From Escherichia coli (GTDB lineage: Bacteria > Pseudomonadota > Gammaproteobacteria > Enterobacterales > Enterobacteriaceae), in the NCBI RefSeq assembly GCF_044324875.1, contig NZ_CP172185.1: DNA of 64,000 bases; one strand, written 5' to 3'. A program made the position numbers and the translations under genes. Within the stretch, counting starts at the first letter, position 1, and every line of letters begins with the position of its first letter. Below the pieces are notes generated by a model. It did not search any database, was not told the origin of the DNA, and saw only the letters and a program-made list of their open reading frames with translations. Positions 16,452 through 24,492 of this stretch are shown here, in pieces.

Positions 16452-16464
16452 TTTAGCGTCTTCA

Positions 16465-16493
16465 AGAGCCAGCGCCCGCTGGCTCTTTTTTTA
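16465..16493 (+). terminator. rho-independent terminator of asnS
   Basis: Hairpin gagccagcgcccgctggctc followed by a T7 run. Confidence 0.7.
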
Positions 16494-16603
16494 TCCTTTC
16501 TGTCAAGTTATCTGTTTGTTAAGTCAAGCAATCTATTTGCAACCCCACCATAACGATCATCCTGTTACGGAATATTACACTGCAACATTTGCGCACAAAA
16601 AAT

Positions 16604-16634
16604 AATCCGCATTCTTATTGCGGATTAGTTTTTT
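16604..16634 (+). terminator. second hairpin plus T-run in asnS-ompF intergenic, immediately abutting IS200 left end
   Basis: aatccgca-ttcttat-tgcggatt (8-bp stem) followed by agtttttt; the IS200-shared sequence starts right after. Confidence 0.5.
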
Positions 16635-17346
16635 GTGCACAGAAAACCCCCAGCTAGGCTGGGGGTTCCGGAAAGCTTTCAGCTTTGAGCCAGTTATTAA
16701 AACCCCTTTTGATTTGTTAAAACACCTTGCGGTCTGGCAACTGCAAGTGTCAAACAAGAAATCAAAAGGGGGTCCCAATGGGGAACGAAAAGAGCTTAGC
16801 GCACACCCGATGGAACTGTAAATATCACATAGTATTTGCGCCAAAATACCGAAGACAGGTGTTCTACAGAGAGAAGCGTAGAGCAATAGGCTGTATTTTG
16901 AGAAAGCTGTGTGAGTGGAAAAGTGTACGGATTCTGGAAGCTGAATGCTGTGCAGATCATATCCATATGCTTGTGGAGATCCCGCCCAAAATGAGCGTAT
17001 CAGGCTTTATGGGATATCTGAAAGGGAAAAGCAGTCTGATGCTTTACGAGCAGTTTGGTGATTTGAAATTCAAATACAGGAACAGGGAGTTCTGGTGCAG
17101 AGGGTATTACGTCGATACGGTGGGTAAGAACACGGCGAAGATACAGGATTACATAAAGCACCAGCTTGAAGAGGATAAAATGGGAGAGCAGTTATCGATT
17201 CCCTATCCGGGCAGCCCGTTTACGGGCCGTAAGTAACGAAGTTGGATGCAAATGTCAGATCGTGTGCGCCTGTTAGGGCGCGGCTGGTAAGAGAGCCTTA
17301 TAGGCGCATTTGAAAAACCTCCGGCTATGCCGGAGGATATTTATTC
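16634..17346 (+). mobile_element. IS200 insertion sequence, copy 1 (IS200/IS605 family, about 713 bp)
   Basis: Limits set by where the sequence stops matching the second copy (23755..24469, inverted); contains tnpA, a left-end hairpin cccccagc-tag-gctggggg and an RBS-sequestering stem; ends are approximate to within 3 bp. Confidence 0.85.
16778..17236 (+). CDS. tnpA: IS200 transposase TnpA (HUH Y1 transposase)
   Basis: 152 aa from MGNEKSLAHTRWNCKYHIVFAPKYRR...; the HxH motif (ADHIHMLVEI) is visible and the protein closely resembles Salmonella IS200 TnpA as recalled from memory. Confidence 0.9.
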   Translation: MGNEKSLAHTRWNCKYHIVFAPKYRRQVFYREKRRAIGCILRKLCEWKSVRILEAECCADHIHMLVEIPPKMSVSGFMGYLKGKSSLMLYEQFGDLKFKYRNREFWCRGYYVDTVGKNTAKIQDYIKHQLEEDKMGEQLSIPYPGSPFTGRK

Positions 17347-17559
17347 TTAGCTGATAGCACAATTTTCATACTATTTTTTGGCGTTCTGGATGTCTGAACG
17401 AGGATTTAGTGCCAGGTCGATAAAGTTTCCATCAGAAACAAAATTTCCGTTTAGTTAATTTAAATATAATGAAATCATATAAATAGATAAATATTGCTGT
17501 AAATATCATCACGCTTCTATGGAAATATGACGGTGTTCACAAAGTTCCTTAAATTTTAC

Positions 17560-17764
17560 TTTTGGTTACATATTTTTTCTTTTTGAAACCAAACCTTTAT
17601 CTTTGTAGCACTTTCACGGTAGCGAAACGTTAGTTTGAATGGAAAGATGCCTGCAGACACATAAAGACACCAAACTCTCATCAATAGTTCCGTAAATTTT
17701 TATTGACAGAACTTATTGACGGCAGTGGCAGGTGTCATAAAAAAAACCATGAGGGTAATAAATA
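17560..17764 (+). promoter_or_regulatory. ompF promoter with OmpR-binding region and 5' UTR (micF target)
   Basis: Sequence ttttacttttggttacatattttttctttttgaaaccaaa...ttgacagaacttattgacggcagtggcaggtgtcataaaaaaaacc matches my recollection of the K-12 ompF promoter/OmpR F1-F3 region. Confidence 0.55.
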
Positions 17765-18853
17765 ATGATGAAGCGCAATATTCTGGCAGTGATCGTCCCT
17801 GCTCTGTTAGTAGCAGGTACTGCAAACGCTGCAGAAATCTATAACAAAGATGGCAACAAAGTAGATCTGTACGGTAAAGCTGTCGGTCTGCATTATTTCT
17901 CCAAGGGTAACGGTGAAAACAGTTACGGTGGCAATGGTGACATGACCTATGCCCGTCTTGGTTTTAAAGGGGAAACTCAAATCAATTCCGATCTGACCGG
18001 TTATGGTCAGTGGGAATATAACTTCCAGGGTAACAACTCTGAAGGCGCTGACGCTCAAACTGGTAACAAAACGCGTCTGGCATTCGCGGGTCTTAAATAC
18101 GCTGACGTTGGTTCTTTCGATTACGGCCGTAACTACGGTGTGGTTTATGATGCACTGGGTTACACCGATATGCTGCCAGAATTTGGTGGTGATACTGCAT
18201 ACAGCGATGACTTCTTCGTTGGTCGTGTTGGCGGCGTTGCTACCTATCGTAACTCCAACTTCTTTGGTCTGGTTGATGGCCTGAACTTCGCTGTTCAGTA
18301 CCTGGGTAAAAATGAGCGTGACACTGCACGCCGCTCTAACGGCGACGGTGTTGGCGGTTCTATCAGCTACGAATACGAAGGCTTTGGTATCGTTGGTGCT
18401 TATGGCGCCGCTGACCGTACCAACCTGCAAGAAGCTCAACCTCTTGGCAACGGTAAAAAAGCTGAACAGTGGGCTACTGGTCTGAAGTATGACGCGAACA
18501 ACATCTACCTGGCAGCGAACTACGGTGAAACCCGTAACGCTACGCCGATCACTAATAAATTTACAAACATCAGCGGCTTCGCCAACAAAACGCAAGACGT
18601 TCTGTTAGTTGCGCAATACCAGTTCGATTTCGGTCTGCGTCCGTCCATCGCTTACACCAAATCTAAAGCGAAAGACGTAGAAGGTATCGGTGATGTTGAT
18701 CTGGTGAACTACTTTGAAGTGGGAGCAACCTACTACTTCAACAAAAACATGTCCACCTATGTTGACTACATCATCAACCAGATCGATTCTGACAACAAAC
18801 TGGGCGTAGGTTCTGACGACACCGTTGCTGTGGGTATCGTTTACCAGTTCTAA
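17765..18853 (+). CDS. ompF: outer membrane porin F
   Basis: 362 aa, [22 protein letters not shown] signal peptide, C-terminal ...VGIVYQF. Confidence 0.95.
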
Positions 18854-23529: not shown

Positions 23530-23754
23530 CCCTTGCCCCCTGTTTTTATCATACTCTGAATAGCCAGGCTGTTATTTTACGACTTACCTGTACAACGCCA
23601 ATACTCACGAAAGTATGACGAGCAAGCCTGTTACTCATCAGGCTTATCTTCAGTATATAAACGCCGATACGTTTTTACATAACCTAATGTAAAGAAGTTT
23701 AAAGAAAAGCGCGCCGTAATGTGCCACTTTTTTAGTGCAGAAACGGAGTTTTCG

Positions 23755-24469
23755 GAATAAATATCCTCCGGCATAGCCGGAGGTTTTTCAAATGCGCCTA
23801 TAAGGCTCTCTTACCAGCCGCGCCCTAACAGGCGCACACGATCTGACATTTGCATCCAACTTCGTTACTTACGGCCCGTAAACGGGCTGCCCGGATAGGG
23901 AATCGATAACTGCTCTCCCATTTTATCCTCTTCAAGCTGGTGCTTTATGTAATCCTGTATCTTCGCCGTGTTCTTACCCACCGTATCGACGTAATACCCT
24001 CTGCACCAGAACTCCCTGTTCCTGTATTTGAATTTCAAATCACCAAACTGCTCGTAAAGCATCAGACTGCTTTTCCCTTTCAGATATCCCATAAAGCCTG
24101 ATACGCTCATTTTGGGCGGGATCTCCACAAGCATATGGATATGATCTGCACAGCATTCAGCTTCCAGAATCCGTACACTTTTCCACTCACACAGCTTTCT
24201 CAAAATACAGCCTATTGCTCTACGCTTCTCTCTGTAGAACACCTGTCTTCGGTATTTTGGCGCAAATACTATGTGATATTTACAGTTCCATCGGGTGTGC
24301 GCTAAGCTCTTTTCGTTCCCCATTGGGACCCCCTTTTGATTTCTTGTTTGACACTTGCAGTTGCCAGACCGCAAGGTGTTTTAACAAATCAAAAGGGGTT
24401 TTAATAACTGGCTCAAAGCTGAAAGCTTTCCGGAACCCCCAGCCTAGCTGGGGGTTTTCTGTGCACAAA
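23755..24469 (-). mobile_element. IS200 insertion sequence, copy 2 (inverted relative to copy 1)
   Basis: Reverse complement matches copy 1 over the full element including tnpA (identical 169-aa ORF translation); ends set by loss of identity. Confidence 0.85.
23865..24323 (-). CDS. tnpA: IS200 transposase TnpA
   Basis: ORF translation identical to the copy-1 ORF; 152 aa from MGNEKSLAHT... Confidence 0.9.
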   Translation of the reverse strand: MGNEKSLAHTRWNCKYHIVFAPKYRRQVFYREKRRAIGCILRKLCEWKSVRILEAECCADHIHMLVEIPPKMSVSGFMGYLKGKSSLMLYEQFGDLKFKYRNREFWCRGYYVDTVGKNTAKIQDYIKHQLEEDKMGEQLSIPYPGSPFTGRK

Positions 24470-24492
24470 GAAAAGGCGGCATTGCTGCCGCC
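24470..24492 (-). terminator. rho-independent terminator of mukB, abutting IS200 copy 2 left end
   Basis: Hairpin ggcggcagcaatgccgcc followed on the minus strand by ttttcttt, 5 nt after the mukB stop. Confidence 0.65.

Follow-up and report, generated by a model that had tools for sequence, protein, structure and literature searches.

In the stretch of Escherichia coli DNA analysed here (henceforth the window; 64,000 nucleotides of contig NZ_CP172185.1), a copy of the insertion sequence IS200 (copy 1) separates asnS from the porin gene ompF. The question that this locus raises is whether an insertion lying between two genes affects the osmoregulation of ompF, the expression level of which sets the permeability of the outer membrane to nutrients, bile salts and beta-lactams. 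The original prediction, made from the sequence, was that the element could alter ompF expression, either by changing the distal upstream DNA or by transcription reading out of the element. The explanation that we favour, with slightly better than even confidence, is that copy 1 inserted recently, is rare, splits the ompF control region and displaces the distal OmpR site F4, which would weaken the repression that depends on looping between F4 and the proximal OmpR sites F1-F3. Its recency, its donor and above all its regulatory consequence are the parts of this explanation that we infer.

A discrete IS200 insertion in the asnS-ompF spacer

The order of genes in this part of the window is pncB-asnS-IS200-ompF-aspC-gloC-mepK-ldtD-IS200-mukB, and their order and orientation are those of K-12. 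Alignment to K-12 MG1655, in which the asnS-ompF spacer is 602 bp long, showed that the spacer is split by a single 711-bp block, which starts with GTGCACAG and finishes with GGAGGATATTTATT. Since T residues border both ends, the boundaries of the block (16635-17345) are uncertain by 1-2 nt (±2 nt). Removal of the block restored the empty site exactly (…GATTAGTTTTTT/CTTAGC, or in its longer form …GCGGATTAGTTTTTT/CTTAGCT, where the slash marks the junction) and, because the flanks rejoin exactly as in the K-12 empty site, copy 1 is present without a target duplication. The arrangement is no chance pattern: compared with the empty site seen in thousands of genomes, copy 1 is a discrete insertion. 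The right end of copy 1 lies 419 nt from the ompF ATG (17765), in agreement with the distance of about 420 bp originally predicted, and the right end that had been placed at 17346 was correct to within 1 nt (17345 by the K-12 alignment). The orientation of tnpA toward ompF was likewise borne out by the open reading frame at 16778-17236 on the + strand. Relative to the ompF transcription start the insertion point is at about -310/-309, such that the first base past the element is -309.

As judged from its sequence, copy 1 is a standard and apparently functional element (Table 1). TnpA matched the Pfam family PF01797 (Y1_Tnp) with E=1.7e-37 over profile positions 2-121 of 121, and the tnpA 5' UTR matched the Rfam family RF01405 (STnc490) with 146.4 bits (gathering score 56) over model positions 1-124 of 124. 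The left-end region has a predicted fold of -60.5 kcal/mol (z=-4.5), and the stem of the left-end terminator hairpin occupies 16647-16665, which corresponds to IS nt 13-31; the published IS200 layout has a terminator at nt 12-34 and a stem-loop at nt 69-138, and the left end of IS200 is described as a bidirectional terminator. At the right end, an 8-bp stem with 7 GC pairs (17318-17336) is followed by ATATTTATTC (17318-17346 overall), and this hairpin was terminator-like on both strands in the terminator scan and the fold. By analogy with the mechanism of the IS200/IS605 family, it presumably serves as the recognition hairpin of TnpA. Both IS200 hairpins are preceded by GAAAA(A) (e.g. window 17311-17345), which, by analogy with IS608, could be a guide that pairs with the T-rich cleavage or target site.

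In common with E. coli IS200C, Salmonella IS200 and Yersinia IS1541, copy 1 is about 0.7 kb long and has one Y1/HUH transposase gene. As in the wider IS200/IS605 family, it has no inverted repeats, no target duplication and subterminal hairpins at both ends. The predicted left-end terminator stem at nt 13-31, the stem-loop in the tnpA 5' UTR with the antisense art200/STnc490 region, and the insertion beside a terminator-like sequence are all as in IS200. Copy 1 shows no structural difference from these elements; its length is 711 bp, compared with the 707 bp given for Salmonella IS200. Copy 1 was 98.6-99.3% identical to three E. coli IS200 copies annotated as IS200C (9, 9 and 5 mismatches in 711 nt), from which the copies in the window differ by four SNPs that are confined to them. 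One of these, an A>T at IS nt 258 in both window copies (window 16892 and 24209), changes TnpA from ...AIGSIL... to ...AIGCIL... (S-to-C) and is absent in the IS200 copies of strains MEW, P31 and 104; the three others, likewise restricted to the two window copies, are at IS nt 200, 368 and 473.

Table 1. Features of the asnS-ompF region and of the second IS200 copy in the window
Feature	Position	Strand	Description and basis
asnS intrinsic terminator	16464..16494	+	hairpin AAGAGCCAGCGCCCGCTGGCTCTT and T-run; terminator scan, alignment and junction reads; target of IS200 in MEW and E300010
OmpR site F4	16564..16594	+	GTTACGGAATATTACACTGCAACATTTGCGC; native -380..-350; coordinates from secondary papers, mapped in the IS-free frame
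Native bidirectional terminator-like hairpin	16603..16634	+	TAATCCGCATTCTTATTGCGGATTA, then G and a six-T run (16629-16634), the end of which is the target of IS200 copy 1; terminator scan and fold
IS200 copy 1	16635..17345	+	711 bp, complete, no terminal inverted repeats, no target duplication; alignment to the empty site
IS200 left-end RNA elements, art200/STnc490 region	16645..16768	+	Rfam RF01405; fold
tnpA	16778..17236	+	152-aa Y1 (HUH) transposase; ORF list, Pfam
IS200 right-end hairpin	17318..17345	+	CCTCCGGCTATGCCGGAGG, then ATATTTATT; terminator scan and fold
Native ompF upstream DNA, -309 to -101	17346..17554	+	joined to the promoter, collinear with K-12 (alignment)
OmpR activation sites F1-F3	17555..17616	+	F1 17555-17574, F2 17575-17594, F3 17595/7-17616; sequence match and A4C5/A14C15/A34C35/C53 signature
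ompF transcription unit	17655..18853	+	inferred start ~17655; CDS 17765-18853, intact, 362 aa
IS200 copy 2	23756..24466	-	inverted relative to copy 1; between ldtD and the T-run of the mukB terminator

The OmpR sites of ompF and the displacement of F4

To place the regulatory sites of ompF we take its leader to be 110 nt long, which puts the transcription start at about 17655. With this start F1 (TTTACTTTTGGTTACATATT), which bears A4C5/A14C15, falls at -100 to -81, consistent with a 110-nt leader, and F2 bears A34C35. Between -309 and the ATG the DNA runs collinear with K-12 and differs from it by SNPs only, with no indels. Between -100 and +110 there is a single substitution compared with K-12, at 17594 (-61 T>C), the last base of F2. 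The view in the original prediction that the promoter and F1-F3 (17555-17616) are intact therefore holds with this one substitution, although the interval given for them (17560..17764) spans the promoter and the 110-nt leader as well as the F1-F3 region. Because of -61 T>C, the 60-mer 17565-17624 (F1b-F3) was matched exactly in none of 5,256 complete E. coli genomes; the best match was 98.3%, with one mismatch. Two further SNPs, at 17470 (-185) and 17492 (-163), were private to the strain among the 13 sequences compared. The substitutions at 17594, 17470 and 17492 could represent either real divergence of a lineage that is about 1% away from the nearest genomes or sequencing error.

In the literature, F4 is a weak OmpR site at -380 to -350, located 260 bp upstream of F1-F2-F3. 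The check proposed with the original prediction was to map F4 and the IHF sites onto 17347-17560; F4, however, is outside this interval and maps to 16564-16594, which is upstream of the element. At this position F4 starts exactly at GTTAC and has AC at positions 4-5 and 14-15, as does F1, and in the IS-free frame its first 20 nt stop exactly 260 bp before F1, a criterion that does not rely on the assumed transcription start. F4 is thus on the far side of IS200 and therefore 711 bp further from F1-F3: it is now at about -1091 to -1061, and the gap between F4 and F1 has increased from 260 to 971 bp, a shift of 711 bp or about 67.7 helical turns. Since the hairpin that was the target of copy 1 sits between F4 and the remainder of the ompF control region, the control region has been cut in two. 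Consequently, the expectation that the element alters the distal upstream context of ompF was correct, and the outcome that would have spoken against it, namely that all cis-elements lie downstream of 17346 at unchanged spacing, is not what we found. We state the insertion point, the splitting of the control region and the displacement of F4 with high confidence.

F4 itself differs from that of K-12 at two positions (-364 T>C and -353 A>G). This two-SNP haplotype is common and was also seen in P31 and in IS-free genomes (L006, L011 and L012), and because IS-free genomes have it too, it is not tied to the insertion. With a matrix built from the six half-sites of F1-F3, F4 ranked outside the top 25, a result to be read in the light of the small size of the matrix and of F4 being a weak site. 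The same half-site matrix detected no strong OmpR-like site inside IS200, where the best score was 8.3 bits compared with 12-20 bits for F1-F3. With respect to IHF, the consensus WATCAANNNNTTR matched the window 60 times when 56.6 matches were expected, which is chance frequency; the single match in the control region, at 17587-17599 within F2/F3, is to be read against that window-wide frequency. We assume that the upstream IHF site lies within 17346..17554, and that the IHF sites, being well downstream of -309, would be unaffected by the insertion. A literature search with the F4 sequence string returned no match.

Compared with the four-site OmpR system of K-12, all four sites are thus present with K-12-like sequence, and the geometry of F1-F3 and the promoter is unchanged. 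What differs is the F4-F1 gap (971 bp versus 260 bp), within which there is now an IS and its three strong hairpins, and, within the sites, the two common-haplotype SNPs of F4 and the -61 T>C of F2, which was present in 0 of 5,256 complete genomes. The exact OmpF protein of this strain is very common in public assemblies, and IS200 was absent upstream of its gene at 10 of the 10 loci listed.

Target choice, donor and age of the insertion

The native hairpin behind which copy 1 is inserted has a predicted fold of -16.6 kcal/mol (z=-5.4) and is uninterrupted in K-12, where it lies at about -340 to -310. Copy 2 has its left junction after the mukB terminator (…GCCGCCTTTTCTTT/GTGCAC). All five independent junctions examined, which is a small sample, adjoin the T-run of a terminator hairpin (TTTT or CTTT at the left ends); they comprised the left end of each of the two window copies, those of the MEW and P31_YH1 copies, and the right end in P31_YH1. 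In each of the left junctions inspected (window 16629-16646 and 24460-24480; L001, L002 and L014) the terminator hairpin and T-run are followed directly by the same IS200 start as in copy 1. Terminators have been reported to be over-represented upstream of IS200/IS605 elements. MEW (L001 8966-10278) and E300010 carry an independent IS200 that abuts the seven Ts closing the asnS terminator; it lies 143 bp upstream of the site used in the window, and the spacing of F4 in these genomes is native. In the human isolates P31_YH1_02.21 (L002 9001-10029), 98205 and OZ121091, ompF is deleted and the order is asnS - hairpin - IS200 - aspC; the left end of IS200 in these three isolates is 3-4 nt from the site in the window, at the same hairpin T-run, and its right end adjoins the last Ts of the T-run of the ompF terminator. 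That three independent insertions lie no more than a few bases from one of two T-runs in a spacer of 602 bp is far from random. Copy 1 is probably at this spot because IS200 targets T-runs behind terminator hairpins, and the direction of tnpA toward ompF would then follow from the strand that carries the T-run rather than from any link to ompF. Mechanistically, copy 1 would have entered by the single-strand ('peel and paste') route, behind the last T of the hairpin T-run.

Copy 1 and copy 2 had 0 mismatches in 711 nt and share the four SNPs that are absent from the three other E. coli copies. Because of this identity copy 1 is probably the product of a recent transposition, of which copy 2 is the probable donor or a sibling. 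The junction of copy 2 on the mukB side was found in 97 of the 5,426 complete E. coli genomes (e.g. strain 104) and the right junction of copy 1 in none of the 5,426, which indicates that copy 1 is the younger of the two. Two full-coverage matches in the search with the copy 1 junction were MEW-type insertions aligned in two pieces, and the junction also had no exact match in GTDB species representatives or in JGI metagenome contigs.

The rarity of the allele has to be read against the sampling of the lineage. Over 25 kb of the window (25000-49999) the closest of the 5,426 complete genomes was only 99.0% identical, and the ompF-ldtD segment was 99.7% identical to strain MEW. The E. coli lineage of the window is sparsely sampled, mosaic or both, and the 'private' status of the copy 1 allele is partly due to this poor sampling, which weakens the count of 0 in 5,426. 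Literature searches that combined IS200 and ompF, or that asked for any IS element upstream of this gene, returned nothing relevant. The allele thus appears to be undescribed, although IS insertion in porin regulatory regions is a familiar class of event.

Consequences for ompF regulation and competing explanations

Repression of ompF in E. coli K-12 by a loop between F4 and F1-F3 is said to have been worked out by Huang, Schieberl & Igo in 1994 and Bergstrom et al. in 1998. In the K-12 model, a loop from OmpR-P on the weak F4 site to F1-F3 shuts off ompF at high osmolarity, and the secondary literature treats F4 as the key element of ompF repression under these conditions. In Y. pestis, which is described as being without F4, ompF expression goes up with osmolarity. 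For the strain studied here, in which F1-F3, the promoter, the leader and the DNA from -309 to -101 stay put, OmpR-dependent activation would be expected to be normal. The F4-F1 loop is 3.7 times longer and its helical phase is altered, which would be expected to lower the effective local concentration and hence to weaken F4-dependent repression. The transcriptional share of high-osmolarity repression would then be weakened, and micF and the other post-transcriptional layers would be untouched.

How large the effect might be is a separate matter. By analogy with the K-12 system, we put a measurable loss of ompF repression at high osmolarity at clearly below an even chance. The weakness of the F4 site and the redundancy that micF adds to ompF repression argue against a strong effect of F4, and some models of ompF repression, reportedly from the Kenney laboratory, need no F4 at all. 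In other systems DNA still loops in vivo over about 1 kb, and the effect of the 971-bp spacing could therefore be small; we know of no measurement of the distance dependence of the OmpR loop. The arrangement resembles the classical experiments in which operator spacing was varied in the DNA loops of the lac, ara, gal and deo systems, in that a weak auxiliary operator, acting by looping to promoter-proximal sites, has been moved further off, and is unlike them in being a natural rather than an engineered allele. In its strongest form the proposal would be that the strain is a natural operator-spacing mutant in which the shift of F4, perhaps together with -61 T>C in F2, frees ompF from repression by the OmpR-P loop such that OmpF stays high at high osmolarity, and that the T-run targeting of IS200 turns the asnS-ompF spacer into a place where variation in porin regulation and porin loss arises recurrently; we regard this form as unlikely.

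If the displacement of F4 does weaken repression, the strain would offer a ready-made in vivo test of the OmpR loop model, with the same sites at another spacing. It would also be a case in which an IS produces an expression phenotype while gene, promoter and activator sites all stay unchanged, that is, one in which a 'silent' intergenic IS acts as a means of retuning a gene. If there is no phenotype, copy 1 would be one more neutral IS200 sitting behind a terminator.

The latter is the main rival to the explanation that we favour, and we consider its chances to fall only a little short of even. It holds that copy 1 is a passenger, that a hairpin T-run is simply a preferred and harmless target, and that osmoregulation of ompF is unchanged because F1-F3, micF, other layers or F4 looping over 971 bp suffice. 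At least three independent IS200 insertions have occurred in the asnS-ompF spacer, each of them at a terminator T-run, and these repeated hits therefore point to target preference and not to selection on ompF. IS200/IS605 elements typically occupy niches next to terminators, the DNA between -309 and the ATG is entirely intact, and a private allele fits a recent event on which selection has yet to act. What a neutral reading has to accommodate, however, is the key role given to F4 in high-osmolarity repression by the secondary literature, as well as the occupancy that a 3.7-fold longer loop to a weak F4 would be expected to cost.

We consider it improbable that the main significance of copy 1 is structural and not regulatory, that is, that it matters as a recombination substrate and maybe as a first step towards inversion of the 6.4-kb ompF-ldtD segment or towards loss of ompF. 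The two identical, inverted IS200 copies flank 6.4 kb that contain ompF-aspC-gloC-mepK-ldtD, and this segment could invert between them; moreover, the three human isolates described above have IS200 at the very joint where ompF is gone. Nevertheless, gene order and orientation in the window are still those of K-12, inverted copies would yield an inversion and not a deletion, and we found no sibling of the strain with a rearrangement. The idea that the ompF-ldtD segment is already inverted was rejected, as its order and orientation equal those of both K-12 and MEW.

The loss of ompF in the three isolates is best accounted for if two IS200 copies in direct orientation formerly flanked the gene and recombined. 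Clinical E. coli can lose porin genes, or have them silenced, through IS insertions and deletions, and the repeated strikes of IS200 at the terminator T-runs around ompF look like a route to porin loss that starts from two 'harmless' intergenic insertions. The strain studied here shares with P31_YH1_02.21, 98205 and OZ121091 the type of IS and the hairpin target upstream of ompF. Unlike in those isolates, ompF, its promoter and its proximal operators are intact, and the change is one of long-range operator spacing and not a knockout.

The remaining alternative takes up the read-through raised by the original prediction and adds to it an outward promoter: transcripts that start in IS200 (tnpA) would cross the ompF control region, where they would either drive the promoter of ompF or occlude it. 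We consider this very improbable: tnpA is co-oriented with ompF, and termination may leak at the imperfect U-tract past the right-end hairpin, but the tnpA promoter is reported to be intrinsically weak with expression further repressed at multiple levels, the right-end hairpin with its 7 GC pairs scores as terminator-like, and the end of the element is 309 bp from the ompF start, beyond the reach of a hybrid promoter. Transcription leaving IS200 into ompF would thus be expected to be negligible. A scan of the + strand in 17238-17654 found no sigma-70-like site, and on this ground, together with the 309-bp distance, we rejected the idea that IS200 brings a promoter toward ompF.

A minor feature of copy 2 concerns its right junction (window 23750-23760), which has two fewer Ts than either the empty site (CTTTTTCCG in MEW and P31) or the orthologous insertion in strain 104; the two missing Ts point to slippage in the T-run or to an independent insertion at that terminator.
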